Virus record (IMG/VR): IMGVR_UViG_3300021964_010723
Reading direction: 5' to 3' (one strand)
DNA length: 64,000 nt
Origin: a virus
Taxonomy: Duplodnaviria; Caudoviricetes
This document shows positions 19,051-37,750 of this stretch, one piece after another (position 1 is the first letter of the stretch; each line of letters begins with the position of its first letter). A program made the position numbers and the translations under genes. The notes below the pieces were generated by a model, which was not told where the DNA came from, searched no databases, and saw only the letters and a list, made by a program, of their open reading frames with translations.

Positions 19051-19781
19051 ATAAAGTCCCAAACATAATTGTTATAGGCTGTAGTTGGTCTAAATGGGGA
19101 GACAACGATTTTTTCAGCAATTCATCTTTAAAAAAAGATAGTGTAAGTAGTTGGCCATTATTGCTGAGTGAGCAATATGATTGTAATGTTGAAAATTTCT
19201 CGCTATTAGGTAACAGTATAGCTTTTCAGTTTTATACTTTTTTAGAAATTCTAAAAAATTACAAATTAGAAGAAATTGATTTAATAATTTTACAAATAAC
19301 ATCTTTTTATAGGCAATCTTTTAAAATATCAAATAGTAAGTTTCAAAAGACGAATATTAAAGAAGATTTAAAGATTATTACACCTAAATATAGAAGTTTA
19401 AAATGTGATAGAATTGAACATCATAATCCTTATGCTCCGGCAAAATTTTTTAATCTTGGTAATAAGTCATTTTTTAGAAGATTATGTACAATGAATGCAA
19501 AATATTCTATTAATGCTGCTATAGAATTTGAAATAGCATGGATTGATAAAATATTAATTTTATGTAAAGAAAAAAATATACCTTGTCTTCCTTGGCAATA
19601 TAGCAATGGAAATAACTTTTGGGAATATGAAAAAGCTGAGTTTATTCTTGAAAAAGAATTATCTAATAAATTATGGCAAAAGTTTATAGTAGATGAAGGA
19701 AAACATTTTAACACAAAAGGACAACAATATATATTAGATCATTTTTTGTTAGACAGAATACGTAAATATGTACAATTATGA
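19044..19781 (+). CDS. SGNH/GDSL hydrolase-like protein
   Basis: IIVIGCSWS (block I), LLGNS (block II), DEGKHFN (block V). Confidence 0.55.
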   Translation: MLNKVPNIIVIGCSWSKWGDNDFFSNSSLKKDSVSSWPLLLSEQYDCNVENFSLLGNSIAFQFYTFLEILKNYKLEEIDLIILQITSFYRQSFKISNSKFQKTNIKEDLKIITPKYRSLKCDRIEHHNPYAPAKFFNLGNKSFFRRLCTMNAKYSINAAIEFEIAWIDKILILCKEKNIPCLPWQYSNGNNFWEYEKAEFILEKELSNKLWQKFIVDEGKHFNTKGQQYILDHFLLDRIRKYVQL

Positions 19782-20841
19782 AGATATAAAAACAATTCAT
19801 TTAGAAATAACACAAAATTGTCAAGCTTCATGTCCTATGTGTGATAGGAATCAAAATGGCGGCGCATTAAATCCTCATATTAATTTAGATGAATTAACAA
19901 TAGATGATGTAAAAAATATATTCACAGCAGATTTTATTTCGCAATTATCTACTATGTATATGTGTGGTAATTTAGGCGATCCTATTGTTGCTCGTGATAC
20001 TTTAGAAGTTTTTGAATATTTTAGGAGTAATAATTCTAAAATGTGGTTGAGTATGAATACAAATGCAGGTGCTAGAGATGAGAATTGGTGGCAAGAACTT
20101 GCTAAAATTTATGGCAGGATGGGTGCTGTTATTTTTAGTGTAGATGGATTGCAAGATACAAATCATATTTATAGGCAAGGTGTAGTTTGGGAAAATGTAG
20201 AACGGTCTATGCGTAGTTTTACAGGTGCAGGAGGTAGAGGCCGCTGGGATTTTTTAATTTTTGATCATAACCAACATCAAGTAGAAGAAGCAGAACGGTT
20301 AAGTAAAGAATGGGGTTTTGAAAAATTTATTAAGAAAAAAACTGGACGGTTTGTAACAGCAAATGTTGAAGCAAAGGACACACATCAAGCAGTCAACAAA
20401 AAAGGTAAAAAGACTGCAGAGATAGCAAAACCTAAAGATGAATTTCAAAATATTGCAATTAAAAATTTACCAATATTATTAGAAAAATATGGCACTATGC
20501 ATAATTATTATAATAAAGTACCAATTTTTTGTAAAGTAAAAAAAGATGGTAGTTTATTCATTACTGCAGAAGGCTTAGCATTACCTTGTTGTTGGACAGC
20601 CGGCCGTATGTATAAATGGTGGCATGAAGACCCTAAAATAGAACAAATATGGAGTTTTATTGATAACAAATCTAAAATTAATGCAAAGAATGGGTTACAT
20701 CAAGTATTTGCCAGTGGAATTTTTGAAACTATAGAACAAAGTTGGAAGAAAACTTCTTGTGATAATGGAAGATTAAAAGTTTGTGCAATGAAATGTGGAG
20801 TAGAATTTGATCCTTTTTCCGCTCAATTTATAAAAAGTTAA
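19768..20841 (+). CDS. Radical SAM protein with C-terminal twitch/SPASM-like domain
   Basis: CQASCPMC cluster motif, GNLGDP, C-terminal PCCW...CAMKC. Confidence 0.85.
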   Translation: MYNYEDIKTIHLEITQNCQASCPMCDRNQNGGALNPHINLDELTIDDVKNIFTADFISQLSTMYMCGNLGDPIVARDTLEVFEYFRSNNSKMWLSMNTNAGARDENWWQELAKIYGRMGAVIFSVDGLQDTNHIYRQGVVWENVERSMRSFTGAGGRGRWDFLIFDHNQHQVEEAERLSKEWGFEKFIKKKTGRFVTANVEAKDTHQAVNKKGKKTAEIAKPKDEFQNIAIKNLPILLEKYGTMHNYYNKVPIFCKVKKDGSLFITAEGLALPCCWTAGRMYKWWHEDPKIEQIWSFIDNKSKINAKNGLHQVFASGIFETIEQSWKKTSCDNGRLKVCAMKCGVEFDPFSAQFIKS

Positions 20842-20857
20842 TATGGGAAAAAAATAA

Positions 20858-22264
20858 ATGACAAATATATCTAAAACATTTTGTGTTTTACCTTGGATAC
20901 ATTTAAGCAGTCGGCCAGATGGTAAAATGCGAACTTGTTGCACGTCTAACGCAAGTTCAGTGCAAAGTTCTGACAGTAGTAAGAAAATTGGAGGAGGAGA
21001 AGTAGGAGTAGTAAAAAATGACGACGGTATACCTGCAAATTTTAATCATACTTCTTTAGAAAATGCATGGAATTCTTCTTATATGCGTAATGTTAGAAAA
21101 AAAATGCTTGCAGGAGAAAAACCTGACAGTTGTTTGAAATGTTACAAAGAAGAAGATGCAGGACATTTAAGTAAAAGAAATTGGGAAACTGAATATTGGA
21201 GTCATAGATATGATATTGGCAAGCTAATCAAGGATACTAATGCTGACGGAACCATACCTACAAAAATTAGATATATTGATTTACGTATGGGTTCAAAATG
21301 TCAACTTGCTTGTGTTATGTGCTCTCCGCATGATAGCTCTGGATGGATAACTGATTGGCAATCAATATATCCTAAAATAGAAAATAAAAAATTAAAAAAT
21401 ACAAGTCAATGGAAAAATAAAGGACAAGTTCACGGCGCAAGTTATAATTGGCATAAAAACAATCCTAAATTTTGGAAAGAATTAATGGAACAAGTTCCTA
21501 ATATGTATCAGTTGTATTTTGCAGGGGGCGAAAGTTTAATAATTGATGAGCATTATGAGCTATTAGAAGAATGTATTAAAAGAAATTATGCAAAAAACAT
21601 TGAATTAAGATATAATTCTAATGCAGTAGAATGGAGAGAAGATTTATTTGATTTGTGGAAGGAATTCAAAAGAGTTAGATTTCATTATAGCATAGACGCA
21701 CATGGAGAGCAAAATGATTACATACGATTTCCTAGTAATTGGACGCATCAAGAGAAAGTGTTTCATTTATTAGATAATTCTCCAGATCAAGTTGAAGTTA
21801 CCACAGCTACTACAATATTAGCTTTAAATATTGCTTATATTCCAGAATTTGTAAAATGGAAAGTTTCTCAAGGATTTAAAAAAATCAATCAATGGCCATT
21901 AGGTGCAGGAGGAATAAATATGCATTTTGCTTATTGGCCTCCTCAATTAAATGTTAAAGTTTTACCAAAAAATATTAAAAAACAAATAACTGAAAAATAT
22001 GAGAAAGAATTTTATCCGTGGATAGATGAAAATTGGAATAAATTTACTGGAGTAGCAGAAAACAATATTTCTTATGATGAATTTCAAAATGCACCATACG
22101 GTAAAAAAAGATTCAAAGGAATTATAAATTTTATGAATGCTGAAGATTGGAGTGAAAGGCTACCTGAAACAAAAGAATATTTAAATTTAGTTAACGAACA
22201 AAGAGGATGGACTAACAAATTTTTACAAGTATTTCCTATTTTTGAGGAGATAATATATGGGTAA
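20858..22264 (+). CDS. Radical SAM protein with N-terminal twitch-like domain
   Basis: FCVLPW..TCC..CLKC, then CQLACVMC and AGGES. Confidence 0.85.
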   Translation: MTNISKTFCVLPWIHLSSRPDGKMRTCCTSNASSVQSSDSSKKIGGGEVGVVKNDDGIPANFNHTSLENAWNSSYMRNVRKKMLAGEKPDSCLKCYKEEDAGHLSKRNWETEYWSHRYDIGKLIKDTNADGTIPTKIRYIDLRMGSKCQLACVMCSPHDSSGWITDWQSIYPKIENKKLKNTSQWKNKGQVHGASYNWHKNNPKFWKELMEQVPNMYQLYFAGGESLIIDEHYELLEECIKRNYAKNIELRYNSNAVEWREDLFDLWKEFKRVRFHYSIDAHGEQNDYIRFPSNWTHQEKVFHLLDNSPDQVEVTTATTILALNIAYIPEFVKWKVSQGFKKINQWPLGAGGINMHFAYWPPQLNVKVLPKNIKKQITEKYEKEFYPWIDENWNKFTGVAENNISYDEFQNAPYGKKRFKGIINFMNAEDWSERLPETKEYLNLVNEQRGWTNKFLQVFPIFEEIIYG

Positions 22265-23435
22265 GGATATTTGCTCTGCAGTTCATCATGGTTTATGTAT
22301 CACTGCTTACGGCGCAGTAAATCCTTGTTGTGCTACAACACAAGATTTTTCTAATTTAGAAAATACTTCAAATCTTGTTGATTATTTTTATAATGATGTA
22401 GAATTAGAAAAAGCTAGGAAAATAGAAATCGAAACCGAAGAATGGTTAGAAGCTTGTAAAGGTTGCGAAATAAAATCAAAATCTGGGCTAGTATCTCGAA
22501 AAGATAAATTTTCTAATTGGTACAGATTCGTAAATCCTAAATGGACAGCAGAAAACAAACATGAGATACTTCATATGGATATAAGTTTTGGAAATTCTTG
22601 TAACCAAAAATGTATTATGTGCAATAGCAACTTTTCAAGTCAATGGTTAGATGATGATTTAGAAATGAAAGAAACTGCTCCATATATAAGGAATTGGAAT
22701 GGACTTAAATTAAAAAATTGGAGTTTGACATATGAGTATTTAGATCAAATTGCACTATTAGTAACAGATAAAACGCAAAAAATAGAAATTAAGGGCGGGG
22801 AACCTTTATATGATAAGAGATTTGAATATTTTGTATTAAAAGTTTTAGAGGTTAATGAGAATGTTATGTTTAATGTTAATACAAATGGTACACATTTTAG
22901 TATGAAAAATATAGAAATGCTGAATAAAATTAAAAATATTAACATTGATATTAGTTTTGACGGTATAAACAAAATATATGAATGGATAAGGGGGACTGAA
23001 TGGAAAAGGTCAGAAGAAAATTTCCAAACATACCTGCAACATTGTAAACATTCTTGCAACTTAAATTATACCACTAGTATGTATAATATAGATCATTTTG
23101 AAATTTTTTACAATTGGGCAGCAGATTTATCCGAAAAATATAAAAAAGCTGTTCCTTGTCTTTTTACCCAAGTAGTTATGACTCCATCTTTTCAACAAAT
23201 TATGTACGCTGATAAAAGAAGAATACATCAAGGCTTAGAGCAGATAGAGCGTATTAAATACGATCCTCGAGGAACGCAATCAAGTACTAATTTATTTAGA
23301 CCAAGATTAGAAATTATTCAAAAATATTTAGAAAATCAATTATCTAAAACTGCTGATATTAACATATTTGAAAAAGCACATAATCATTTTGTAAAAATTA
23401 GGGGCTGGGATATAAGAGATTATGTTAACTTGTAA
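22257..23435 (+). CDS. Radical SAM protein with N-terminal twitch-like domain
   Basis: C..PCC..CKGC, then CNQKCIMC and GGEP. Confidence 0.85.
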   Translation: MGKDICSAVHHGLCITAYGAVNPCCATTQDFSNLENTSNLVDYFYNDVELEKARKIEIETEEWLEACKGCEIKSKSGLVSRKDKFSNWYRFVNPKWTAENKHEILHMDISFGNSCNQKCIMCNSNFSSQWLDDDLEMKETAPYIRNWNGLKLKNWSLTYEYLDQIALLVTDKTQKIEIKGGEPLYDKRFEYFVLKVLEVNENVMFNVNTNGTHFSMKNIEMLNKIKNINIDISFDGINKIYEWIRGTEWKRSEENFQTYLQHCKHSCNLNYTTSMYNIDHFEIFYNWAADLSEKYKKAVPCLFTQVVMTPSFQQIMYADKRRIHQGLEQIERIKYDPRGTQSSTNLFRPRLEIIQKYLENQLSKTADINIFEKAHNHFVKIRGWDIRDYVNL

Positions 23436-24582
23436 GGTACCTTGGATCTCAATTACATTAAGCGGTAATGGAGACATTAAGCCGTGTTGTGTGTTTAAAG
23501 GAGGAGAGCATAGTATTCATAAAGGAGATACGCTTGACTCGACGTGGAAAGATTTTGATAAACTTCGTGAACAATTTATTAAAGGATATAAACCTGATAA
23601 ATGTAATCAATGTTGGAAAAGAGAAGAAACATTAGGATACAGTAGAAGAACATGGTATGATGATAAAATAAAAATTTGGCCAGAAACTTTTGATTTAAAT
23701 CCTACAATGGAATTACGACATATGGATTTAAATTTTGGAAATACTTGTAATTTAAAATGTCGTATGTGTGGTAGTTGGGGCAGTACTGCATGGTTTAAAG
23801 AAGAAGAAAAACTAATGTCTTGTAATCCTGCATTACAAAGAGGAGTATCAAATCTTAAACCTACAATAATACCTGCTGATTATTGGGCTGATAAAAAAAC
23901 GATGTTTCGATTTTTAGAACGAATAGATTTTAAGGGCGGAGAACCGATGATGCAAGAAGGTATGTATGATTTCCTTGAGTATCTTGTTTCATGGGGATAT
24001 GCATCTAACATAACTATTGCTTATACAACAAATGGTACTAAAACTCCTGAAAGGTTAAAAGAGCTTTGGCCAAAGTTTAAGAAAGTAAAATTAGTAATAA
24101 GTGTCGAAGCAACTGGTAAATTGTATGAATATATTAGAGGCGGCGACGTTCAATCTATAGATTCCTTAAAAGATAACATACATTGGTTTGATCAATTTAA
24201 TAATTTAAATGGTAGTTTTAACAGTGCTATACAAATTTATAATATATTTGCTTTACCAAAATTACTTGAATGGTTTAGAGATACTGTAAATGCTAGCAAA
24301 AAATGGCACACAGATCCAAATACTTTTAAATTTGATTGTTTAGTAGTTAATCCGCCGTATTTAGATATAAACATTATGCCAAACAGTTTAAAGAACAAAG
24401 CTATCTCAATAATAGAAGAAAAGAATTATAAAAGCCTTGGTGTTATAAAAAGTGCATTACAGAAAAAAAATACTTTTAATGATTATAACTGGAAATTGTT
24501 TATAGATTTTACCAAACAATTAGATAAAATGCGGCATACAGATATTAAAGAAGTTGTTCCTGAGTTACAGGAGTATTTTTAA
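23422..24582 (+). CDS. Radical SAM protein with N-terminal twitch-like domain
   Basis: CKVPW..PCC..CNQC, then CNLKCRMC and GGEP. Confidence 0.85.
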   Translation: MLTCKVPWISITLSGNGDIKPCCVFKGGEHSIHKGDTLDSTWKDFDKLREQFIKGYKPDKCNQCWKREETLGYSRRTWYDDKIKIWPETFDLNPTMELRHMDLNFGNTCNLKCRMCGSWGSTAWFKEEEKLMSCNPALQRGVSNLKPTIIPADYWADKKTMFRFLERIDFKGGEPMMQEGMYDFLEYLVSWGYASNITIAYTTNGTKTPERLKELWPKFKKVKLVISVEATGKLYEYIRGGDVQSIDSLKDNIHWFDQFNNLNGSFNSAIQIYNIFALPKLLEWFRDTVNASKKWHTDPNTFKFDCLVVNPPYLDINIMPNSLKNKAISIIEEKNYKSLGVIKSALQKKNTFNDYNWKLFIDFTKQLDKMRHTDIKEVVPELQEYF

Positions 24583-25796
24583 TGTTTACTTTGAAAAATA
24601 GCTGTGTTTATATGAATAATTTTCCTTTCATTAATAATAAAGGACAATTAAAGCTTTGTTGTAAAAATAATACGTATACAATGGAAGGAAATATCAAAAC
24701 TCATTCGTTAAAAGAAATGTATTTTAGTTCTTTATACAATGAGTTAAGGGATAAAATGTTAGCAGAAAAGGTTATAGAAGGATGTGATATTTGTTATTCA
24801 CAAGAAGCTCGTAACGAAGATAGTTTTAGAATTAGAGCTTTGACAAATATTACTAGAGAAGATAGAGATAAGATAGTTCCCTTTCCAAAAGTAAAGATAC
24901 AAAATTTAGATCTAAGGATAGGTTCTACTTGTAATTTAATGTGTTCAATGTGTCATCCTACAGATAGTAGTAAATGGTATGCAAATTATGAAACATTTGC
25001 AAAAGAAGTTCATAATAAAAGTGACAATCATGTGAACATTATTAAATCAACAAATATTCCAACTGATTTAAATTGGGCAACATATGACGAAAGTTGGGAT
25101 AATATTTTTAAAAGTATTGATGATGAATTAAATTTTGTTTACATTGCGGGAGGAGAGCCTTTTTATATTAAAAAATTTCCTGAGTATTTAACACATTTAA
25201 TTGAAAAATCTCCTAATGCAATAATTGAAATAAACACCAATTCAACTGCTGCTATTCCAGAAAAGTATTTAGATAAATTAAAAGGAAAGTTACAATTACG
25301 TATTAGTATAGATGGTTTTAGAAAAACAGAAGAATATCAACGTGCAGGTACAAATTGGAATGAGAAAATTAAGATAATTGATTCATATTCAAAATATTTT
25401 GAAATTAAATGTTTTGATATTACTCTAACAAGTTTTACTATTAGATCTTTGCCTTCTCTTGTAAGTTTTTTAGAAAATAGATATCCAAAAGTTCGTTTTT
25501 TATTTAGACCTGTTGTAAATAGGCAAGGTCAAGATATTAGAAGTGTACCTAAAAAATTTTTAAGTCATGTAAAAACATTTTGTAAGGAAAAACAAGAAAT
25601 AATTAATGAAAATAAGGAAATGCGCTGGCATTATAACAATATTAATCAAATTTTAAATTTTTTAAATCAAGATTATATTGATGAAAAAGAAACATTACAA
25701 AAACTTGTAAAATATTGGGATGATTTAACAGGAATACATTTTAAATCTTTTGATACAGAATTTGGAAATTGGATAAATGAAAACCATAGCAGTTGA
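24582..25796 (+). CDS. Radical SAM protein with N-terminal twitch-like domain
   Basis: C..LCC..CDIC, then CNLMCSMC and GGEP. Confidence 0.85.
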   Translation: MFTLKNSCVYMNNFPFINNKGQLKLCCKNNTYTMEGNIKTHSLKEMYFSSLYNELRDKMLAEKVIEGCDICYSQEARNEDSFRIRALTNITREDRDKIVPFPKVKIQNLDLRIGSTCNLMCSMCHPTDSSKWYANYETFAKEVHNKSDNHVNIIKSTNIPTDLNWATYDESWDNIFKSIDDELNFVYIAGGEPFYIKKFPEYLTHLIEKSPNAIIEINTNSTAAIPEKYLDKLKGKLQLRISIDGFRKTEEYQRAGTNWNEKIKIIDSYSKYFEIKCFDITLTSFTIRSLPSLVSFLENRYPKVRFLFRPVVNRQGQDIRSVPKKFLSHVKTFCKEKQEIINENKEMRWHYNNINQILNFLNQDYIDEKETLQKLVKYWDDLTGIHFKSFDTEFGNWINENHSS

Positions 25797-26523
25797 GCAT
25801 AGTAGTCCTAATCAAAGTAAAATTTTTAAAATAGAATGGAATTTAGGAAAACGTTGTAATTTTAATTGTAGCTATTGTGATGAATATACTCATGATAATT
25901 ATAGTAAGCATATACCTTTTGATATAGCAAAAAAAACTATAGATAAAATTATGGCTAAAACGCAAAATAAAAAAATTAAAATAAATTTAACAGGCGGAGA
26001 ACCTACGGTAAATCCTGATATTGAAGAAATAATTTCTTATATGTATGATAATAATATAGATATAGGAATAACAACAAATGGAAGTAGGAAGCTAAATTTT
26101 TATCAAAAAATACTGCCAAAATTAGCAAGCTTAATATTTAGTTATCATATGGAATATCATGCAAGAGAAGTCCTTCCGGAAAATATTGTTGAAATATATA
26201 ATCTTGCTCAACAACAAAAAAAATATATTCACGTGCATGTTCATATGATGATGCTACCTACAAAATTTGATGAAGCAATTAATGCGTTTGATTTTTTTAA
26301 ACAGAATTCAGTTCCTGTTGTCATGCGCCGAATTAGACCAGCTTACAAAAAGGATAATGATGCAATTTATGAAAATAAAAAACTTATAGCTGGTAATATT
26401 GCAAGGCCTTTTTATGACGGTGTTGTTACATTGAAAATGACCCCAAATGGACCAGATTATTCAGGTGCTGATGATTATTATAGTAATGATGAGATAACAT
26501 ATTTAGAAAATAACAATGTATAA
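25777..26523 (+). CDS. Radical SAM core domain (N-terminal half of a split gene)
   Basis: WNLGKRCNFNCSYC and GGEPT; aligns by eye with the N-terminal part of 36635..37750. Confidence 0.8.
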   Translation: MKTIAVEHSSPNQSKIFKIEWNLGKRCNFNCSYCDEYTHDNYSKHIPFDIAKKTIDKIMAKTQNKKIKINLTGGEPTVNPDIEEIISYMYDNNIDIGITTNGSRKLNFYQKILPKLASLIFSYHMEYHAREVLPENIVEIYNLAQQQKKYIHVHVHMMMLPTKFDEAINAFDFFKQNSVPVVMRRIRPAYKKDNDAIYENKKLIAGNIARPFYDGVVTLKMTPNGPDYSGADDYYSNDEITYLENNNV

Positions 26524-26905
26524 AATACTTAAAAATCAAAATAAAGCAGGTAGTTTTACGAATGTCGCTACTATAAGAAAAGATGGAAATGATATTTTTT
26601 ATGTAGAAGAAAATGTAAATGATATCACTGTAAGGCGAGAAAATCAGTATAAAGGTTGGTTGTGCTGGTCAGGTATCGAAAGTTTAATGATAGATGCAGA
26701 CGGAAATGTTTTTACTGCAACTTGTAGGACAAAAAAGTTAGGCAACATATATACCGAGTTTACTCTACCCGATGAACCCATTATATGTACAAAAAATTGG
26801 TGTGCTTGTGCAGCCGATTTAAATACAAGTAAAGCAATTGATATAGAATCAGCAAAATTATTAAGGAGGGCTAATAATGCATATTCTCGAACGTTGGGAA
26901 GCTAG
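26516..26905 (+). CDS. Stand-alone SPASM/twitch-like Fe-S domain (C-terminal half of a split gene)
   Basis: YKGWLCWSGIESL..DG..C...LGNI..ICTKNWCACAAD matches FKGWSCNAG..DG..SC..LGNI..C...C...AD at the end of 36635..37750. Confidence 0.7.
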   Translation: MYKILKNQNKAGSFTNVATIRKDGNDIFYVEENVNDITVRRENQYKGWLCWSGIESLMIDADGNVFTATCRTKKLGNIYTEFTLPDEPIICTKNWCACAADLNTSKAIDIESAKLLRRANNAYSRTLGS

Positions 26906-27482: not shown

Positions 27483-27483
27483 A

Positions 27484-28773: not shown

Positions 28774-30124
28774 ACAACAAAGAGAAATTTTGCAATTTGG
28801 TTCTGTTGCTGTAACCTATGTTGCAGAAAAAGAACATAGATACAGTGATAAAGTTTTTGCCAGACTTTGTAAAAATGTGGCAGAATATGATGTTATTCAT
28901 CTTATAAAAAATGGAATTGCAGCGTCTATAGAAAACAGTTTAGTAGATAGTCTAAAATTTGCAAAAGCATATGACAAAAAATTTCTTTTATATTGCCAAG
29001 TAGGAAATTTAATTATTTGGGAAGAGATTGCAGAGCATTTAAAAGAAATTTTATTATTAAATCCTACGGTAAAATTTATAGGACATATTTTACAGCATAA
29101 TAATAAAAGTTTTTATATTCATCCTCAATTTTTTTTAATAGATGTGAAATGGGCTATTAGTAACAAATGCGTTACCATTTGTAATGAGCATTCGGATATT
29201 AAGTGGGAAGGCCCGTTATTAAGCAGGAGTAAAGAAAATTTTCATGATAATTACACTCCTATTTGGGTGCAGGCTACAGGTAAATATAAAAATTTTGTTG
29301 GAAGAGGTAAAGGAGCAAATATTATTGATATATTGGCACGATCTGCTGCAGATTTTATGCCTTGGCAAGTGAATGTTAGAAAAAATAAAAAATTTTTGTA
29401 TCCTACAGTAAAACAAGAATTAATTAAACAAAAAAATGAGATTTTTGAGGAAATGTTGTTTACTAGACCGTATGTTGCTAATACAGAAAATATTACACCT
29501 AAAGCAATGTTATCAAACATAAATCCAAAAATAAAGTTTAATATATCTTTTTCTCCTGCTAGTGGAATATTTTGGTTTTTATTACCTTATTACTTAAAGG
29601 TCACGTCGTTTGTTTATGATTCGTCGCCATATGCACTACGTATGGTTGAAAAAATTAGAATGGATTGGAATGGTAGGAATTATAAAGAGTTTGTAATTAA
29701 AAATTTTTTAAACGAAAGTCCTAATATAGGTTTGTATGCCGCTCATACAGGACCATTTTTAGATCAAGCAAATGATCTGATTGATTCTTTAGGGGAGGAT
29801 TTTGTTAGATGGTGGCATAAAAATAATAAAGGTCCTTTACGACAAGTTAATTTATGTAATTTTTCTAATTTTCAAAGATTATTAGTAGATGATCATAAAA
29901 ATTTAAATGTTTTTTTTAATTTTTCTAATATTTTTCATTTTAGACCAGTAGCTGTTTTTAATAGTTTACAAGAAAGGGTTAATTTGCTGAAGGAGATAAG
30001 AAATTTTATGTTAGAAAATTATAAATTTGTACATTTTCTTGGTACATCTCCTATTGGAAAAGACAAGATAGATGGAGATATAATTGATGGAAAATTAGTT
30101 TGCCCCCTAAAATTATTCGAATAA
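28760..30124 (+). CDS. Hypothetical protein (possible transferase)
   Basis: 454 aa ORF overlapping the upstream gene; no confidently recognised motif. Confidence 0.55.
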   Translation: MITAKQQREILQFGSVAVTYVAEKEHRYSDKVFARLCKNVAEYDVIHLIKNGIAASIENSLVDSLKFAKAYDKKFLLYCQVGNLIIWEEIAEHLKEILLLNPTVKFIGHILQHNNKSFYIHPQFFLIDVKWAISNKCVTICNEHSDIKWEGPLLSRSKENFHDNYTPIWVQATGKYKNFVGRGKGANIIDILARSAADFMPWQVNVRKNKKFLYPTVKQELIKQKNEIFEEMLFTRPYVANTENITPKAMLSNINPKIKFNISFSPASGIFWFLLPYYLKVTSFVYDSSPYALRMVEKIRMDWNGRNYKEFVIKNFLNESPNIGLYAAHTGPFLDQANDLIDSLGEDFVRWWHKNNKGPLRQVNLCNFSNFQRLLVDDHKNLNVFFNFSNIFHFRPVAVFNSLQERVNLLKEIRNFMLENYKFVHFLGTSPIGKDKIDGDIIDGKLVCPLKLFE

Positions 30125-30133
30125 ATAAAATAT

Positions 30134-30853
30134 ATGGATAAAAATATAATAGATTTATTTGAAAAGAACAAATCAATTGGTCATTATTCTAAAGGTGTGC
30201 CTGCCTTGCCAAAAGAAATGATTCCTTGGCAAGGCAATTATGATCAAGCTGCAATGTGGATATTAAAAAATAGTTATCTACCTACTTTACTTTTAGATTT
30301 AGAAATCCCATTTAATGAAATGCTTGCAGAATCTGTAACCAATGACGAATATTACGTAAAACATAGAGGTAATAGATCACCTGGGTGGTATAGCATGGCC
30401 ATACATGGAACTGCAGTTAACCATACCCAACCTGCAGAATATTATTACAAAAAAAATAAACCTAAATATGATTGGACTGATTTAGCAGAAAAATGTCCTA
30501 TTACAAAAGATTGGTTAAAAAGTTTAGAATTTGAATCTTTTAGTAGGGTTAGATTTATGAAATTATCTCCAGGAGGATGGATAGAACCACATCAAGATAC
30601 ACATATTGCAGGAATTCAGGCATGGAATGTTGCTTTGAATCATCCCCCAGGACATGAATTTGTAATGGACAATTATGGATTGGTTCCTTGGCAAGAAGGG
30701 CAAGTTAGAGGAATAGATATTAGTTCTTTGCACAGTGTAAGAAATGTAGGAAAAAAGGATAGAATACATATAATTATTCATGGCAGTATTGGAGATAAAT
30801 TTAAAAAGATAATTTGTAAAAGTTATTTAGATCTGTATGAAAAAACCTATTGA
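30134..30853 (+). CDS. AspH-like 2OG-Fe(II) oxygenase
   Basis: RVRFMKLSPGGWIEPHQD (HxD), HSVRN, DRIHIII. Confidence 0.8.
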   Translation: MDKNIIDLFEKNKSIGHYSKGVPALPKEMIPWQGNYDQAAMWILKNSYLPTLLLDLEIPFNEMLAESVTNDEYYVKHRGNRSPGWYSMAIHGTAVNHTQPAEYYYKKNKPKYDWTDLAEKCPITKDWLKSLEFESFSRVRFMKLSPGGWIEPHQDTHIAGIQAWNVALNHPPGHEFVMDNYGLVPWQEGQVRGIDISSLHSVRNVGKKDRIHIIIHGSIGDKFKKIICKSYLDLYEKTY

Positions 30854-32324
30854 TATTGTGTTGTTAAGCACACCAGTAATGGAAACAAGAGTGCCTGCGC
30901 CTGCAATTTATTATCTAAAAGGCGCATTAAATCCGCATGGATTTAAATCTCGTTGTTTTGACTTAGTAAGAGATAGTGAAGAAAAATTTGGTGTAGAAGA
31001 CAATAAGAAAATAAACAGTTTTTTGTTAGCTAATTGGCATGCTGGAATGCTTGTTGATGAAGATGATAGAAGTATTTATAATAAAATTTTTCAATATTAT
31101 AGAGAATATGTAAAAGAAAAAATATTATGTTTAAATCCTAAATACATTGGTGTGAGCGTTTTCAGTCAAAATAGTCAAAAATCAAGTCACATATTATGTA
31201 AAGCTTTGAAAGAATTTTTACCGCATACTAAAATTATTTTAGGAGGAACTGGGTTAGGTATTTCTATGGGCGGAAAAAAAGAGTTTGGATCTAATTTAAT
31301 CGATCAAGGCTTAGCTGATTATTTTATTGACGGAGAAGGCGAAATTGCTTTAGTTGAACTATTAAAAGGTAATTTAAACTATCCGGGAATAAATTCTACA
31401 GTCTATAAACAAATTGATAACATAAATGATTTGCCTTTTCCTGATTATAGTGATTACATGCAAGATTACGGTAATATTAATAAAATTACTTTGACAGGAT
31501 CTAGAGGGTGCGTAAGGCGTTGTAGTTTTTGTGATATAGGAGCATTTTGGAAAAAATTTAGATATAGATCTGGTGAAAATATTGCTGAAGAAATTATTAG
31601 AAATAAAGAATTGTATAAATCCCGAACGCACTTTTTTTCAGACAGTCTTATAAATGGAAGCATGAAAGCATTTAGAGATTTTTGTAATGTTATGGCAGAT
31701 TATCATAAAAAGTATCCAAGAGGGAAGGACCGAATTAGATGGGGAGGACAGTTCATAATAAGGAGTGAAATGCAGAGTCCTGCAGAAGATTATGAATTAA
31801 TGCGTAGAGCAGGTATGTCTTGGGCTAGCATAGGAATAGAGAGTGCAAGTGAAAAAGTTAGAGATCATATGGATAAACAATTTAGTAATACAGATATGTA
31901 TTTTAGTATTGATAGATTAATAGAGAATGACATACCTGTTACTGCTATGTTTATAGTAGGCTATCCTACAGAGACTGAGGAAGAATTTAAAGAAAATATA
32001 AAATGGCTACAGTATTATGCAGATAGAAATAGCAGTAAAGTAAAACAGGAATGGAAAGGGCAAATTAAAGATATAAATTTAGGACAAACCTTAGGTGTCT
32101 TATCGGATAGTCCGTTAGGAAACATGGACATTTTTGAGGGAAAAGATACGTGGGTGTCAAAAGTTGTACCTGGTTTGGATTTTGAAGAACGGGTAAATAG
32201 ACGTAAATTGTTATCAAAAATTGCTAATGACTTAGGCTACACAGTAAGGTGGGACGAAAAACAATTACATTTTTTAAATAAAAAATTAGAAAGATGGCAG
32301 AGTAAAGGACGTCCTATAACATGA
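30837..32324 (+). CDS. Cobalamin-binding radical SAM protein
   Basis: N-terminal B12-binding-like region (IGVSVF, ILGG, GEGE); SRGCVRRCSFCD; GIES. Confidence 0.85.
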   Translation: MKKPIDIVLLSTPVMETRVPAPAIYYLKGALNPHGFKSRCFDLVRDSEEKFGVEDNKKINSFLLANWHAGMLVDEDDRSIYNKIFQYYREYVKEKILCLNPKYIGVSVFSQNSQKSSHILCKALKEFLPHTKIILGGTGLGISMGGKKEFGSNLIDQGLADYFIDGEGEIALVELLKGNLNYPGINSTVYKQIDNINDLPFPDYSDYMQDYGNINKITLTGSRGCVRRCSFCDIGAFWKKFRYRSGENIAEEIIRNKELYKSRTHFFSDSLINGSMKAFRDFCNVMADYHKKYPRGKDRIRWGGQFIIRSEMQSPAEDYELMRRAGMSWASIGIESASEKVRDHMDKQFSNTDMYFSIDRLIENDIPVTAMFIVGYPTETEEEFKENIKWLQYYADRNSSKVKQEWKGQIKDINLGQTLGVLSDSPLGNMDIFEGKDTWVSKVVPGLDFEERVNRRKLLSKIANDLGYTVRWDEKQLHFLNKKLERWQSKGRPIT

Positions 32325-33484
32325 ATACTAAAACGTTTTGTATATTGCCGTGGATGCATCTTGCAACTAATGCTAGTGGGAATTTACGAGTATGCTGCAA
32401 TTCGCTTCCTGGAAAAAATTTTGTAACAAAAGATAATGGTCAACCTTATAAAATTTATAAAGATAACTTAATTGAAGCATGGAATAGTGATGTTTACACT
32501 AAAATAAGGGAAGAAATGTTAAATGGTATAAGACCTGAAATGTGCACCCGTTGTTTTAGAGAAGAAGATACTGGAATAAAAAGTTCTAGGCAGGCCTGGA
32601 ATGAAAAATGGATGGAAAATAAAATTTACAGTAAGAATCCTGATTTTGAAATTAAATATGTAGATCTAAGATTAGGCAATTTATGTAATTTAAAATGTAG
32701 GATGTGTAATCCTTATGCAAGTAATCAATGGGTAAAGGAATGGAATTTAGTAGAAGAAGCTCTGTCGCCAAGTGAATATGATAGGTTAAGTAATATGAAT
32801 TGGCCTTCTGCAGAAAAAACTTGGATAAATTTATTTGCGATAGCAGAAACAGTTGATGAAATATATCTTACAGGAGGCGAACCTACTATTATTAAAGAAC
32901 AGCATAGATTATTAGATTATTTTATTGATAATAATATTTCTCATAAAATCAAATTAAAATATAATACAAATTTAACAAATATTCCTGCAAAGCTTATAGA
33001 AAAATGGAAAAAATTTAAAACAGTCCAATTAAATTGTAGTATTGATGCAGTAGGTGATTTAGATAGATACATACGTTTTCCTAGTAATTGGAATCAAATA
33101 CAAGAGAATTTTAATCAGGTTAGACTGTTAAAAAATGTAAATATAGAAATACATTGTACAGTACAAATGTATAACATTTTGCGATTAGATGAATTTTTAG
33201 ATTGGGCAGGACCTTATAATAATAAAATTTATTTAAACATATTGAATCATCCTGAATATCTTAATATAAGGGTTTTACCTGTAGAGTTAAAATTTATTGT
33301 AGAAAAAAAATTAAAAAAGTATTTACATTTTCCTAAAGTTAAAGGGGTTATTGATTATATGTTAGCTGAAGACTGGGTTGACCAATACAAAAATTTTGTT
33401 GATTATACGTGTAAAATTGATAAATCAAGAGAGCAAAATTTTGCAAACTTTGTACCTGAATTTCATTTAGAGAAATATGTATAA
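32321..33484 (+). CDS. Radical SAM protein with N-terminal twitch-like domain
   Basis: FCILPW..VCC..CTRC, then CNLKCRMC and GGEP. Confidence 0.85.
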   Translation: MNTKTFCILPWMHLATNASGNLRVCCNSLPGKNFVTKDNGQPYKIYKDNLIEAWNSDVYTKIREEMLNGIRPEMCTRCFREEDTGIKSSRQAWNEKWMENKIYSKNPDFEIKYVDLRLGNLCNLKCRMCNPYASNQWVKEWNLVEEALSPSEYDRLSNMNWPSAEKTWINLFAIAETVDEIYLTGGEPTIIKEQHRLLDYFIDNNISHKIKLKYNTNLTNIPAKLIEKWKKFKTVQLNCSIDAVGDLDRYIRFPSNWNQIQENFNQVRLLKNVNIEIHCTVQMYNILRLDEFLDWAGPYNNKIYLNILNHPEYLNIRVLPVELKFIVEKKLKKYLHFPKVKGVIDYMLAEDWVDQYKNFVDYTCKIDKSREQNFANFVPEFHLEKYV

Positions 33485-34706
33485 TAAAAAAACATATTGT
33501 CCTATGCCTTTTGTGACAATGACTGTGAATCCAGGAAATTACATTTCACGATGTATGATGAGTCATAAATCAATGGGAGAAATACAATCAAAAACTTTGC
33601 AAAATTTAGCGTTTGAAACGCTTAGATCTAATATGCTAAATGGAGTTTGGGATAAAGAAGGTTGTAAAGTTTGTTATAATAGAGAAAATGCAAATTTAGA
33701 TAGTCAAAGGTTAAAATGGTTAAAAAATGAAAAAATATATTTAGATGAAGAAGGTATATATGAAAAAAATATTAATTTAAGCAGAAATAAAATTTATCAT
33801 TTATATTTAAATTTTAGTAATATTTGTAATTTTAAATGTAGAATGTGCGGACCGCATTTTAGTAATGCATGGTTAAGTGACCATAGGAAATTGTTAGAGA
33901 AAGGAATATATAAAGAAATTTATAATACATCTTTTATTATTCCACCTAAAAGTCAAGTAGATATAGATAAATTTTTATTAGAATTTGGTAATGATTTACA
34001 AAATTTACGGCAAATTTGGATCACAGGAGGAGAACCGTTTATTGATAATAAATTATTTGATTTCTTTGAAAAGCTAGGAAGTTATGCAGATTTAAAAAAT
34101 ATAAAGGTAAGTATAAACACAAATGGTAGCAAGTTAGATGTTAATAAATTGAAAATTTTAAGGAATTTAAAACAAATTGTAATTAATTTTAGTGTAGACG
34201 CTGTAGGTGATTTGTATAAGTACATGCGTGGTTATAATTATGATTTTAAAGAAATTGATAAAAAGATAAACAATTGTTTAAAATTACAGAATGAGCAAAA
34301 TAATTTAAATATTGCTGTAAATGGAACTTATCAATTATATAATATTTTGAATGTAGAAGATTTTTGGCTATGGGGTAAAAAAGTCGCTAATTCTAAAAAA
34401 GGAAATTGGATAGAATATAGAACACTTTCTGGTCCAAATTTTCTTGCTGCTCGTCATGCACCTTTAACAGTAAAAAATAAAGCAGTAAAAATTTTGCAAA
34501 AACTAATAGATGACGATAAAGATTTTAGTCATAATCATTATTTGCAACAGGCTATTTGTGAATGTAAATTAAATGCTGTACCAGAGTATATAAAAAAATT
34601 TGTTAATTTTAATAACGCACTTGATAATATAAGGAATGAAAAGTTAAATGATTATTGCGAGTTTTTATTAAAAGGCTGGAGTGAAGAAGGTAATTTAGAT
34701 GAATAG
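33477..34706 (+). CDS. Radical SAM protein with N-terminal twitch-like domain
   Basis: YCPMPF..RC..CKVC, then CNFKCRMC and GGEP. Confidence 0.85.
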   Translation: MYNKKTYCPMPFVTMTVNPGNYISRCMMSHKSMGEIQSKTLQNLAFETLRSNMLNGVWDKEGCKVCYNRENANLDSQRLKWLKNEKIYLDEEGIYEKNINLSRNKIYHLYLNFSNICNFKCRMCGPHFSNAWLSDHRKLLEKGIYKEIYNTSFIIPPKSQVDIDKFLLEFGNDLQNLRQIWITGGEPFIDNKLFDFFEKLGSYADLKNIKVSINTNGSKLDVNKLKILRNLKQIVINFSVDAVGDLYKYMRGYNYDFKEIDKKINNCLKLQNEQNNLNIAVNGTYQLYNILNVEDFWLWGKKVANSKKGNWIEYRTLSGPNFLAARHAPLTVKNKAVKILQKLIDDDKDFSHNHYLQQAICECKLNAVPEYIKKFVNFNNALDNIRNEKLNDYCEFLLKGWSEEGNLDE

Positions 34707-35754
34707 GTATTGCGAAGCAGGCAAAAATCATGTATGGATACGGTCTATGGATGCAGGACCAATCGCTCAATTGTGTTGTAGTTTAGACAGGAGTAATATA
34801 CATAGATATCCATTAGATAAGGTATCTGATTTTTTAACATTGTTAGATTCTGCAGAATGGAAAAAAAAGTATGATGTGCTTGAAAAAGAAAGATTAGACG
34901 AATGTAGTAATTGCTATAAAGATGATCAACAAAAAAAATATAGTCAAAGAAGAAAAATAAATAGTCTTTGTAGAAATGGCAAGTTTTTTTTAAAAATTGA
35001 TTTTAGTAATAAATGTAATTTAAAATGTTTAATGTGTAGCAGTGCTAGAAGCACATCTTGGATTAAAGATGAATACCAATTAAAAAAAGATTTAGATTGG
35101 TGGACTTGGGGGCCTATAAAGTATTCTACATTGGGAGACGATTGGTGGCATAATTTATCAAACTTGTTTTGGAATAGTGTAGGCACAGTTGAAATTTCAG
35201 GAGGCGAACCGTTATATCAAGAAGATGCAATTGCTTTTTTAGAGTTTTTTGCTCATTCTTATCCAAATATCACAATAAGAATAATAACAAATGCAACTTT
35301 GTTAAATGACAATGTTAAAAAAATTTTTACAAAAATAAAAACATTAGATGTTTTAACAAGTATAGATGCATGGGAAGATGAAATTTATAGATATAGTAGA
35401 GGCGGAGTACATTCGTTAGATAAAATAAAAGAAAATCTTAAAATAATTAATTCTATTGTTACAAGGCATGCTGTTGTAGATACCTTACATCCAGTAAACT
35501 ACGATCAATCTCTTATTGGAAAGCAATGGCTTAGGCAAAATGGTTTAAAAGTTGATTATCATGCTTCGTATGTGTTTTCGCCAGATTTTTTAGATCCAAG
35601 AAAAGTATTACCTGCTAATTTATTGCCCGGAAAAAAAGATTATAAATTAATGAAAAGATTTAAAGAATTTATTTTAGCATTAGATAAAATACGAAATACA
35701 AATATTTTTGATATAAGACCAGAATTTGAAAAATGGTTTAAGGAGATAGGATGA
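34699..35754 (+). CDS. Radical SAM protein with N-terminal twitch-like domain
   Basis: YC..LCC..CSNC, then CNLKCLMC and GGEP. Confidence 0.85.
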   Translation: MNRYCEAGKNHVWIRSMDAGPIAQLCCSLDRSNIHRYPLDKVSDFLTLLDSAEWKKKYDVLEKERLDECSNCYKDDQQKKYSQRRKINSLCRNGKFFLKIDFSNKCNLKCLMCSSARSTSWIKDEYQLKKDLDWWTWGPIKYSTLGDDWWHNLSNLFWNSVGTVEISGGEPLYQEDAIAFLEFFAHSYPNITIRIITNATLLNDNVKKIFTKIKTLDVLTSIDAWEDEIYRYSRGGVHSLDKIKENLKIINSIVTRHAVVDTLHPVNYDQSLIGKQWLRQNGLKVDYHASYVFSPDFLDPRKVLPANLLPGKKDYKLMKRFKEFILALDKIRNTNIFDIRPEFEKWFKEIG

Positions 35755-36635
35755 AAATAGGAATTTTTGGAGATAGTTTTGCAGAAAAAGTTAATCCTGT
35801 ATTGTGGATTTGTTCAACCTTAAAGGAAAACAAGTATACAAATTACTTAAGAGAAAAAATAAGGGAAGATACTTATATTTGGCATGATTATTTTGCTGAA
35901 CAGGGGCATACAGTGCATGATTATGGTAGGGGTGGTACCGATATCTATTATTCCTATTATCAGTGGCTGCATAATCATGAAAAATATGATTGTTGCATAT
36001 TTCTTGTATCAGGTTTTCGTAGGCTCTCGGTAAGGCACAAGGACTTTAATGCAAAACATGAACAAGATCTTTGGTATTCTGTTGTAAATGTGCAAGATGC
36101 GTTACGCAAATCAAATCCAAATAAAAGTCTATTTAAAGGAAGCAAGAATAAAAAAAATGTCTATTATAATAACTTTGCAAAAGCTGCAATATATTATTAT
36201 AAAAGTATTGATGGCTACGATCCTTTTAGGCATATACATTTTTGTGAGTTAATGTTGAAAGAAATACAACAAAAGAGGCCTGATACGTTATTTGTACCAG
36301 CAGTATATAATGATCCTTTAAAAAATTCACCTACTTTAACAGACATTTATTTTATGGAAACAGCAGCAATGGGAGAAGTATATCAGAAAGAGTTAGAAAA
36401 CAATACATGTTTTATTGTTGAAGGTAACGGATTTGCTGATATAAGAGTTGCTCATTTAAGTAAGAAAAATCATGAAATACTAGGAAAAAAGATATATGAT
36501 AGTATTATGAATAAGGTAACAAATTTTAAAATAATTATTGAAGATTATATAATGGAATTTTCTCAAGACGAAATAGACAAATGTTGGATTTCGAAACAAG
36601 AATACAAGAATATAATTGAAAAAAGATATGCATAA
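35751..36635 (+). CDS. SGNH/GDSL hydrolase-like protein
   Basis: IGIFGDSFA, YGRGGT, late HLS..NH. Confidence 0.6.
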   Translation: MKIGIFGDSFAEKVNPVLWICSTLKENKYTNYLREKIREDTYIWHDYFAEQGHTVHDYGRGGTDIYYSYYQWLHNHEKYDCCIFLVSGFRRLSVRHKDFNAKHEQDLWYSVVNVQDALRKSNPNKSLFKGSKNKKNVYYNNFAKAAIYYYKSIDGYDPFRHIHFCELMLKEIQQKRPDTLFVPAVYNDPLKNSPTLTDIYFMETAAMGEVYQKELENNTCFIVEGNGFADIRVAHLSKKNHEILGKKIYDSIMNKVTNFKIIIEDYIMEFSQDEIDKCWISKQEYKNIIEKRYA

Positions 36636-37750
36636 TGAATACAGATTTAAAATATAGTAATTATGATTTTACAAAAATACCTTTTAAAGATTTAGTACAA
36701 GTTGGTCAACGAACTTTATTATATAGAGATATTTTTACAGTATCTTGGTTACTAGGTAGATATTGTAATTATCGTTGCTCATACTGTTGGCCGTATGCTA
36801 GATCTAATTCAAAAGATCATCGACCTACAAAATTATGTCTATTGACCATAGATGAAATAAAGAGGCAAGCAAGGACTAACGGATTTAATAGTTTCCATTT
36901 TAGCTTGTCAGGAGGTGAGCCGACATTTCATCCTGGATACTTAGATATCTTAAAATATCTGGCAGATGATGTTCCTAACACGAATTATACAAGCATACAC
37001 ATGACTAGTAATTGTTCTAGACCATTAGAATGGTTTAAACAATATGTTGAATATGCAAAACCATTTCATAGGGCAAGTATTACAGCGAGTTTACATACAG
37101 AACATGTATGCACAAAAGATCAAATGCAAGATTTCGCGGATAAATTAATCCTATGTCAAGAAAACGATGTTCAAATTACAATAAATCAAGTTATGGTACC
37201 TGAATGGTTTGACAGAGATTGGGAGAATGCTTTATTTTTCCATGAACAAGGAATAAATGTAACACTAAAACCGCAAAGTGATCCTACTGCTAGTCGTGTT
37301 GTTGATGGGTATACAGATGAACAATTAACAAAATTATGGAATGGGATGCCACAGCGTGCCTATACAGAATCTAAACGTAAATGGGATGATAGACCAAAGC
37401 CGTCTTATGATATCAATCCAGGAATAATGGGTAAAAATGATGCGAGTGTGCCTTGGCATATGCAAGTAGAGTTTACTGATAAAGATGGAAAAAAATGGTA
37501 TATAGATCAGGCGGAAAGATTTAATGCTTTTAATTTTAATAAATTTAAAGGATGGAGCTGTAATGCAGGATTTCAGGGTATAATTATTAGAGAACCAGAT
37601 GGAAGTGTAAAAAGAAGTTATAGCTGTCATGATGTGCCTTTAGGAAATATTGAAACAGGTTTTAATTTGTTTAAAAAACCGGAATTTTGTATAACTGATA
37701 GTTGTGTGTCAAGTGCTGACAGCAAAATTCCAAAAAGGAAAGTTTTATGA
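36635..37750 (+). CDS. Radical SAM protein with C-terminal SPASM/twitch-like domain
   Basis: WLLGRYCNYRCSYC and GGEPT; C-terminal GWSCNAG...SC...C...C. Confidence 0.85.
   Translation: MNTDLKYSNYDFTKIPFKDLVQVGQRTLLYRDIFTVSWLLGRYCNYRCSYCWPYARSNSKDHRPTKLCLLTIDEIKRQARTNGFNSFHFSLSGGEPTFHPGYLDILKYLADDVPNTNYTSIHMTSNCSRPLEWFKQYVEYAKPFHRASITASLHTEHVCTKDQMQDFADKLILCQENDVQITINQVMVPEWFDRDWENALFFHEQGINVTLKPQSDPTASRVVDGYTDEQLTKLWNGMPQRAYTESKRKWDDRPKPSYDINPGIMGKNDASVPWHMQVEFTDKDGKKWYIDQAERFNAFNFNKFKGWSCNAGFQGIIIREPDGSVKRSYSCHDVPLGNIETGFNLFKKPEFCITDSCVSSADSKIPKRKVL

Follow-up and report, generated by a model that had tools for sequence, protein, structure and literature searches.

What does a phage do with eleven radical S-adenosylmethionine (SAM) loci in a row, and do the copies whose cysteine-rich module stands in front of the catalytic core represent a new kind of enzyme? 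The question is raised by a stretch of 64,000 nucleotides from an uncultured member of Caudoviricetes (IMG/VR record IMGVR_UViG_3300021964_010723), the whole of which is called the window here. An initial annotation of the window had described an array of radical SAM paralogs between positions 19768 and 37750, eight of them with the auxiliary cluster domain at the N-terminus. Our analysis revealed that the array, intact and well conserved, exemplifies an enzyme family that is catalogued but uncharacterised, and that the island around it is of a type already recognised in phages. The system is not new in kind: the architecture has a catalogue entry, and the literature already mentions radical SAM cassettes in the host-recognition islands of phages.

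Radical SAM genes and their family

The open reading frames (ORFs) named in the initial annotation are all present, all on the plus strand, and the Pfam family Radical_SAM (PF04055) was found in all 11 loci. The same span also contains a class-B (B12) radical SAM gene at 30837, and two more lie just outside it, at 38200 and 45215. In total, the island holds eight copies of the N_Twi_rSAM type (NCBIfam family NF033640, 'twitch domain-containing radical SAM protein', curated cut-off 170 bits) and six other radical SAM genes. Named by their first position, they are as follows.

19768..20841, plus strand: radical SAM gene with the usual order of domains (PF04055, E 7e-7); NF033640 matches the core only, with 36 bits.
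20858..22264, plus strand: N_Twi_rSAM paralog, 468 aa (NF033640, 413.8 bits), in an orthogroup with viral and Bdellovibrionales members.
22257..23435, plus strand: N_Twi_rSAM paralog, 392 aa, on a long orphan branch (NF033640, 174.8 bits).
23422..24582, plus strand: N_Twi_rSAM paralog, 386 aa (NF033640, 286.7 bits).
24582..25796, plus strand: N_Twi_rSAM paralog, 404 aa, on a long branch (NF033640, 197.5 bits).
25777..26905, plus strand: split radical SAM gene, consisting of a core (25777-26523; PF04055, E 2e-14) and a Cys-rich C-terminal piece (26516-26905).
27484..28773, plus strand: N_Twi_rSAM paralog, 429 aa (NF033640, 330.3 bits; SPASM at residues 14-75, E 8e-11), sister to Bdellovibrionales sequences.
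30837..32324, plus strand: class-B (B12-binding) radical SAM gene, methyltransferase-like (PF04055, E 2e-19).
32321..33484, plus strand: N_Twi_rSAM paralog, 387 aa (NF033640, 390.1 bits).
33477..34706, plus strand: N_Twi_rSAM paralog, 409 aa, with a single middle Cys (NF033640, 233.8 bits), in a viral-only orthogroup.
34699..35754, plus strand: N_Twi-like paralog, short and fast-evolving, 351 aa (NF033640, 137.4 bits; N-terminal module, E 2e-13).
36635..37750, plus strand: radical SAM gene with the usual order, of the same family as 25777+26516 (PF04055, E 4e-14).
38200..40026, plus strand: class-B radical SAM gene, KedN5-like (NF033712, 168.9 bits, cut-off 700).
45215-46774, plus strand: third class-B radical SAM gene (PF02310 and PF04055).

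For eight ORFs, Pfam, a hidden Markov model (HMM) of the N-terminal module and a multiple alignment agreed that a Cys module precedes the CxxxCxxC core, as the initial annotation had proposed. In front of the core (residues ~4-96), the Pfam family SPASM (PF13186) was found in 20858, 23422, 24582, 27484 and 32321 (E 1e-4 to 8e-11), and as a weak match below the cut-off in 22257; these matches cover only the hairpin and CxxC that the two kinds of module share. An HMM built on residues 1-100 of 68 members of the family matched all eight (E 1e-13 to 5e-40), including 33477 and 34699, both of which were missed by Pfam SPASM. In the eight-way alignment the invariant positions are C9, C27, C92, C95, C148/C152/C155, S160 and W163 (numbering of 20858) together with the GGE motif, and at the middle position, which is CC in the other seven, 33477 indeed carries only one Cys (RCMM). 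Among 228 phage and bacterial members of the family, the five N-terminal Cys positions are conserved at 90-100% (205 to 228 sequences) and the four invariant ones at 96-100%. Of the further motifs that had been listed for the family, the tail lD..R....P was borne out, D367, R370 and P379 being at least 90% conserved in 68 sequences, and so was the S..W motif behind the core, in which the serine is well kept (S134, at least 90% in the 68 sequences) and the tryptophan less so (134 of 228 members). The CxxxCxxC and GGE motifs, and the partial TIM-barrel fold of the modelled core described below, are features of the radical SAM superfamily.

The NF033640 cut-off was passed by seven of the eight (175-414 bits), with matches running end to end (profile positions 1-398), and 34699 alone fell below it. 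The permuted order had been presented as a reversal of the canonical one. Relative to BtrN, anSME and SkfB this is real, but the architecture is catalogued and not new, since NCBIfam holds NF033640 as a curated family. Literature searches found no paper on the NF033640 family and no tested member, and the family entry consists of a name only; no assigned function was found, so the initial annotation is not refuted on that ground. Residues 5-82 of the family profile align to residues 163-237 of BtrN, its C-terminal twitch domain (E 5e-4), and a single auxiliary [4Fe-4S] cluster is most likely bound by the four to five conserved N-terminal Cys. The seven-Cys SPASM motif (CX9-15GX4C-gap-CX2CX5CX3C-gap-C, C-terminal to the core) was not found in the eight.

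The AlphaFold2 (AF2) model of 32321 is of high confidence (pLDDT 95.9). In Foldseek searches of the PDB and the Swiss-Prot part of the AlphaFold database and in VIA-align comparisons, only the core, from about residue 100, matched solved structures (template modelling score (TM) ~0.4), and no solved structure aligned residues 1-100 together with the core. BlsE was the top structural match (Z 13.6, root-mean-square deviation 3.6, 210 aligned residues), followed by anSME (13.4), viperin (13.1) and SkfB (13.0). Because these top matches are tied, the fold of 32321 gives no function. By sequence, the best PDB matches of the core are SkfB and TigE (8vpo), ahead of GDGT-MAS.

Three further loci, 19768, 25777+26516 and 36635, keep the usual order, with the core first and the Cys-rich part behind, which agrees with the initial annotation. 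The Cys-rich C-terminal part of 19768 was not significantly matched by the N-terminal twitch HMM (E 0.65). The 26516-26905 piece matches the C-terminus of the STM4011 family (E 5e-6), and an equal two-gene split of the 25777 type recurs in a Bdellovibrionales locus (L063, 12423-13468), so 25777+26516 represents a conserved form in two genes rather than the product of a frameshift. In other phage contigs, the 25777 type was seen as a single gene of 323-328 aa. For the class-B gene 30837, the best NCBIfam matches were the PhpK, ladderane-lipid and RiPP (ribosomally made peptide with post-translational modifications) C-methyltransferase families, all far below their cut-offs.

Age, distribution and conservation of the paralogs

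The initial annotation had read the array as a family expanded within one phage operon. This was wrong: the eight paralogs share only 17-33% pairwise identity, and in a maximum-likelihood tree of 90 family members they never pair with each other. The genes 20858, 32321 and 27484 each fall within well-supported mixed groups of viral and Bdellovibrionales sequences; the nearest relatives of 23422 are viral (V_L017, V_L129), in a wider clade (support 99/91) that also has Bdellovibrionales members. These four orthogroups are shared with other phages and with Bdellovibrionales, and the four paralogs have orthologs of 40-70% identity across phages and bacteria. Additionally, 33477 groups with viral sequences only, and 22257, 24582 and 34699 form long orphan branches. 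The eight copies are therefore old, non-redundant subfamilies and not recent duplicates. A different pattern was observed on the Bdellovibrionales chromosome OZ220490.1 (L045, 8628-13958), where four adjacent N_Twi genes with terminal branches of 0.15-0.20 form a genuine recent fourfold tandem duplication in situ, unlike the ancient paralogs of the phage.

To survey relatives of the array, IMG/VR was scanned for the pattern, which revealed at least 540 stretches encoding such genes, and 79 loci were kept for counts. At least two copies within 10 kb are present in 76 of the 79 (median 4.5, maximum 9). Orthologs of 19768 occur in 64 of these viral loci and in Bdellovibrionales, and orthologs of 36635 in 60, with a 537-bit match in a Bdellovibrionales locus (L027). 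On marine contigs (81-346 kb), orthologs of 19768, 20858, 23422, 27484, 32321, 36635 and the 25777 type are found in unchanged order, and orthologs of the first six also occur on Bdellovibrionales chromosomes. For 32321 alone, 1926 homologs were obtained at E<=1e-10. Matches in GTDB were overwhelmingly from Bdellovibrionales, on megabase chromosomal contigs, one array being adjoined by the gene for EF-G, and the four Bdellovibrionales genomes that were counted have about 13-22 copies each above the cut-off. N_Twi genes, a 19768-type gene, a 36635/25777-type gene and a double GT-A-like gene (16346, described below) make up a conserved cassette, which recurs in Bdellovibrionales and on many phage contigs. 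Two metagenome-assembled genomes in GTDB labelled Crocinitomicaceae and Gammaproteobacteria (L018, L019) carry the phage-type cassette with 63-69% identity to the window, and are probably phage contigs binned into bacterial genomes.

The nearest record (G001) is 97% identical over the window, and all genes are intact in both, with a pooled dN/dS of 0.17 for the radical SAM genes. As there are only 0-18 changes per gene against G001, just this pooled value and the contrast of 34699 carry weight: 34699 shows 15 non-synonymous and 3 synonymous changes, while the other radical SAM genes show 8 and 28 (Fisher p 2.6e-5). Every cluster ligand is kept in 34699. An in-frame indel of 15 nt against G001 was found in 33477. 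Together with the next gene, 35751 (15 non-synonymous, 5 synonymous), 34699 forms a local hot spot of relaxed or diversifying change (34699-36635), whose flanking genes are nearly invariant. In metagenome runs from at least 13 studies, the array is almost unchanged. One run of independent marine plankton (X10) yielded a contig that joins 26914 to 27468, in which the nitroreductase-like gene is absent and the rest of the array is kept.

These data bear on the possibility that most copies are decaying or redundant duplicates without distinct functions. It might be suggested by the shortness of 34699, its score below the family cut-off and its excess of non-synonymous changes, and by the few orthologs of the long branches 22257, 24582 and 34699. 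Against it, the ORFs are whole in two genomes, all cluster ligands and GGE are kept, and four paralogs have clear orthologs across phages and bacteria. Because the genes are intact, the pooled dN/dS is 0.17 and the array is almost unchanged across the studies, decay is not the explanation; it is largely refuted already and we give it next to no weight. The copies are distinct, strongly diverged and intact enzymes, as the initial annotation had supposed, and only 34699 shows relaxed or diversifying change.

The island between tail-fibre genes

The source phage is an uncultured marine or estuarine jumbo phage, distantly akin to PA5oct and Rak2-type phages. This kinship was deduced from an ATPase (54246-55325), which is 50% identical to its PA5oct counterpart, and from a large virion structural protein (>2100 aa) at the start of the window, whose nearest relatives are in PA5oct/Rak2-type jumbo phages. 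Related marine contigs are up to 346 kb long. Megablast of the array against GenBank phages gave no match, and the tblastn matches were limited to distant radical SAM genes, present singly, of KVP40-like Vibrio phages and of RsoM2USA.

The array region is the core of a tailoring island of ~34-37 kb between two sets of tail-fibre genes. From 12850 to 46774, 35 plus-strand genes overlap or are separated by gaps of <=27 nt, save two gaps of 208 and 92 nt; the plus strand from 19044 to 40026 is tightly packed, with gaps of <=27 nt inside the array. Since tail-fibre genes lie upstream and an Mtd_N fibre gene lies in the convergent block downstream, the island is enclosed by fibre genes on both sides, and a TARA contig (L013) has the equal layout. 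The other features of the island are listed below.

7077-9176, 9177-11207 and 11248-12819, plus strand: three tail-fibre genes (PHROG tail fibre/tail collar families, E 1e-9 to 1e-20), bounding the island upstream.
12815..12822, plus strand: TATAAATA, the consensus of T4-type late promoters, 28 nt ahead of the ATG (12850) of the first gene in the 35-gene block.
16346..18835, plus strand: 829-aa protein with two paralogous GT-A-like domains (aa 1-250, 300-545) and a third (aa ~600-829).
19044..19781, plus strand: 245-aa protein, family unassigned (no Pfam or NCBIfam match), first gene after the 208-nt gap.
26877..27482, plus strand: weak nitroreductase-like gene (PF00881, E 3e-3, below cut-off), a dispensable cassette.
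28760..30124, plus strand: 454-aa protein, no family match.
30134..30853, plus strand: AspH/LpxO-type hydroxylase-like gene, 2-oxoglutarate (2OG)-Fe(II) type (PF05118, E 2e-12).
35751..36635, plus strand: 294-aa protein with an N-terminal GDS motif, no family match, dN/dS 0.66.
37747..38172, plus strand: short protein of 141 aa, like short-chain dehydrogenases/reductases (SDR; PF00106, E 6e-4, below cut-off).
40563-45218, plus strand: run of short proteins, four matching AspH-type hydroxylases (PF05118 in 42602, 43479 and 43999, E 6e-6 to 3e-10).
46762..51399, minus strand: convergent block with an Mtd_N-domain fibre gene (49816-51399) and FA_desaturase-like, AspH-like and sulfotransferase-like genes.
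51432-51439, minus strand: TATAAATA, 33 nt upstream of the start of the Mtd_N fibre gene.

The double GT-A-like gene 16346 had no Pfam match, and in the Atlas only unnamed viral clusters were found for it. Its architecture is supported by an internal duplication and domain-wise homologs, with a DGD motif (D69, D71) invariant in 27 sequences. The repeated domain was modelled by AF2 with pLDDT 88.7, and its top Foldseek matches (WrtF, RmlT, ArnC, GtrB and PBCV-1 A64R) are all GT-A enzymes, with E 1e-5 to 1e-3 and TM of only 0.31-0.39. Having the GT-A fold with a DxD motif in this model, 16346 is predicted to be GT-A glycosyltransferase-like. Homologs are present in 50 of the 79 viral loci, and the family has 4210 unnamed homologs. 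Searches against PDB sequences with 16346 (aa 1-300 and 590-829), 28760, 35751 and 36635 gave nothing usable.

For other genes, the evidence is more diverse. The nitroreductase-like gene is regarded as dispensable because the X10 contig is without it. Through longer Bdellovibrionales ORFs, 28760 clusters with AspH-like proteins, which points to a possible fusion, and its homolog adjoins an AspH-like gene in L063. The ortholog of 35751 in L017 has a weak DUF6270 match. In the run of short proteins, 44589 is just under the PF05118 cut-off (E 3e-4, 21.0 against 22.6 bits), and the three short genes 40563, 41258 and 41889 (40563-42605) had no Pfam family match. With the gene at 30134-30853 and one at 47840-48472, six AspH-type (PF05118) genes are present in the window, five of them above the cut-off. 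The run was also the part least conserved against G001, with 87% identity at 41257-43481 and 43482-44370 unaligned, compared with 96-97% elsewhere. The convergent block matches PF18454 (E 8e-8), PF00487 (E 1e-7) and PF05118 (E 7e-7), and its sulfotransferase-like gene is just under the cut-off of PF00685 (E 3e-4).

The sequence TATAAATA is depleted in the window (7 copies observed, 21 expected), and the only two sense-oriented copies head the two converging blocks. These putative promoters hint at late expression of both blocks. Scans for sigma-70 promoters and terminators were uninformative in the AT-rich DNA of the window. In one metatranscriptome library, eight short contigs were found (151-230 nt, depth 2-4), seven of them within the array, for which DNA carry-over is possible.

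Beyond the island, the minus strand at 52871-54154 encodes a 427-aa protein (PHROG 1314, 'HNH endonuclease', E 5e-116) that adjoins the conserved ATPase. Further minus-strand genes at 56994-63935 encode a 5'-3' exonuclease, GTP cyclohydrolase I (59205-59876), ribulose-phosphate 3-epimerase, a 2OG-Fe(II) oxygenase, a PnrA/Bmp-type substrate-binding protein and an SbmA/BacA-like membrane protein, and probably serve the phage as auxiliary genes for metabolism and transport.

Possible substrates and comparison with known systems

The reading that we favour, while holding it slightly more likely to be wrong than right, is that the island edits a sugar, nucleotide-sugar or glycoconjugate, most likely for a virion surface structure, with late expression being probable. 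It starts from family membership, conserved ligands, ancient paralogy, purifying selection, linkage to glycosyltransferase (GT) genes and the position between fibre genes. A glycan is preferred because the GT-A-like gene co-occurs with the arrays, because GT2, carbamoyltransferase and methyltransferase genes are their bacterial neighbours, and because the island lies between tail-fibre genes. In bacterial loci, GT2 is the commonest neighbour outside the radical SAM genes (32 members in 16 loci), and genes of the GT1/28 type, methyltransferases, a NodU-type carbamoyltransferase and an AsnB-like amidotransferase also adjoin arrays. BlsE, the top although tied structural match, acts on a nucleoside sugar.

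Cluster binding, radical chemistry, substrate class and target are all conditional in the following scheme. Each enzyme would cleave SAM reductively to a 5'-deoxyadenosyl radical, which would take a specific unactivated hydrogen from its target, whether a sugar, a nucleotide-sugar or a nascent glycoconjugate. An electron might be accepted or returned by the N-terminal cluster, as in BtrN-type oxidation, or this cluster might position the substrate, and the outcome could be oxidation, epimerisation, dehydration/decarboxylation or C-C bond formation. The B12 radical SAM enzymes may add C-methyl groups, AspH-type oxygenases and the sulfotransferase-like and SDR-like enzymes may decorate the product further, and the GT-A enzymes would transfer sugars. 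The end product, synthesised late in the infection, would most likely be a glycan with heavy editing, carried by the virion fibres or by some other surface structure.

Several observations weigh against this reading. Genes for making nucleotide-sugars were not found in the window, the co-location of GT2 genes with arrays is no more than loose in two Bdellovibrionales genomes, and the GT-A assignment of 16346 rests on the low-TM fold match. No more than one Z unit separates BlsE, anSME, viperin and SkfB, all of which align over the core only. Modification of proteins and peptides is likewise typical of AspH-type oxygenases and class-B radical SAM enzymes. The single family member of Paenibacillus sits in a cluster of acyl carrier protein (ACP), ketosynthase and CoA-ligase genes, a context from which at least one clade would act on a lipid or glycolipid. 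Glycan, substrate and activity are here all predictions.

Among the alternatives, modification of protein or peptide was the one put forward in the initial annotation, which had taken the array for a set of peptide or protein maturases. Epimerisation, cross-links, C-methylation or hydroxylation would then be introduced into tail fibres, another virion protein or a peptide, as by proteusin and sactipeptide maturases. SkfB and TigE as the best PDB sequence matches of the core, the presence of CteB, SuiB and anSME among its top fold matches and the adjoining fibre genes would fit this, and the enzyme set presumably resembles the tailoring sets of proteusins. The inference was nevertheless not supported. 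No match to PqqD (PF05402) or another RiPP recognition element (RRE) was obtained in any of the 11 loci at E<=0.01, although very divergent RREs could escape the HMM; from 19044 to 40597 genes overlap or lie <=27 nt apart, which leaves no room for a precursor gene; neither CHxS-tailed, HxS-repeat or Ser-tagged proteins were found in the window, nor collagen-like or other repeats in the fibres. GT-A and GT2 genes co-occur with the arrays and the Paenibacillus member points to lipid or glycolipid, so that a protein substrate is rather unlikely. Still less probable, in our view, is tailoring of lipids or glycolipids, in which acyl chains or a glycolipid would be edited, for example in a host or virion-associated envelope lipid. 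One argument for it is the locus of Paenibacillus polysaccharolyticus (L078, 8278-19745), where genes for a CoA ligase, an ACP, FabG and two ketosynthases surround a single N_Twi gene, with a HpnI/CruG-like GT2, a phosphopantetheinyl transferase and an ABC exporter as further neighbours. FA_desaturase-like genes in the window and in L013, the weak LpxO likeness of 30134, the match of 30837 to the ladderane-lipid B12 radical SAM family (E 9e-27, below cut-off) and GDGT-MAS among the core matches point the same way. However, the phage island yielded no gene for an ACP, a ketosynthase or an acyltransferase, the family matches cited for this reading are all far below curated cut-offs, and tailed phages have no lipid envelope.

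A third possibility is that radical SAM and GT enzymes make a modified DNA base or a small molecule derived from a nucleotide. The fold matches of the core include viperin, MoaA and QueE, 25777 is weakly QueE-like (54.7 bits, cut-off 260), and the GTP cyclohydrolase I gene lies at 59205-59876. On the other hand, arrays of about 13-22 copies are found on bacterial chromosomes, none of the genes for DpdA/Tgt, QueC and QueD turned up in the window, and the island is inside the fibre module, not the replication module, all of which makes nucleotide hypermodification very improbable.

A bolder form of the glycoconjugate reading can be considered, which we regard as doubtful and hold less firmly than the reading itself. 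According to it, the N-terminal-twitch enzymes would be a large class of carbohydrate- or glycoconjugate-functionalising enzymes acting on C-H bonds, and about ten distinct radical reactions, shared by abundant marine jumbo phages and predatory Bdellovibrionales, would build a heavily edited surface glycan on the structures with which both recognise their bacterial prey. The interest of the window lies mainly in the open chemistry of a very large family: NF033640 accounts for a large coding share in phages that abound in marine and estuarine waters, and for about 13-22 genes per Bdellovibrionales genome counted. Identification of a substrate would assign chemistry to thousands of genes and would reveal what phages build in the variable islands beside their fibre genes. 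A trait common to two kinds of bacterial predator could also be explained in this way. For this, the window is a good intact example, with a close relative in G001 and its DNA present in many public samples, and the Paenibacillus locus provides a tractable context in a cultured organism.

Compared with BtrN, anSME, SkfB, MoaA and BlsE, the eight enzymes share the core fold (Z 12-13.6), and their module is homologous to the twitch domain of BtrN. They differ in that the module precedes the core, in having neither the seven-Cys SPASM motif nor an RRE domain, and in an added helical C-terminal region of ~130 residues with its own D/R/P motif. The HXS system (HxsB/HxsC, TIGR03978/TIGR03977) is similar in a weak core match (19-30 bits) and in having several radical SAM enzymes per locus, but the array scores far below the cut-offs (268-370 bits) and the window is without an HxS-repeat or CHxS-tailed protein. 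As for virion glycosylation, we know of no radical SAM enzyme in the systems of chloroviruses and mycobacteriophages. The likeness to them lies in a virus-encoded GT-A enzyme beside structural genes, as in the chlorovirus PBCV-1, whose capsid-glycosylating A64R is among the fold matches of 16346, and in mycobacteriophages (Freeman et al. 2023, as cited in PMC12801897), and the difference in that the system here is known from genes alone.

A close parallel is the host recognition cluster (HRC) described for pelagimyophages and cyanomyophages (Zaragoza-Solas et al., 2020; PMC7029224), a variable island of the structural module, which in pelagimyophages contains fibres, glycosyltransferases and 'radical SAM cassettes', the radical SAM genes not being analysed in that study. 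The window resembles it in the combination of fibre, GT and radical SAM genes and in the position beside fibres. The HRC border genes vrlC and gp14 were not identified in the window, and the HRC phages are T4-like, with genomes of 132-164 kb (PMC7029224), whereas the window phage is nearest to the PA5oct/Rak2 type. By analogy, the window seems to show the logic of the HRC in a different, larger kind of phage.

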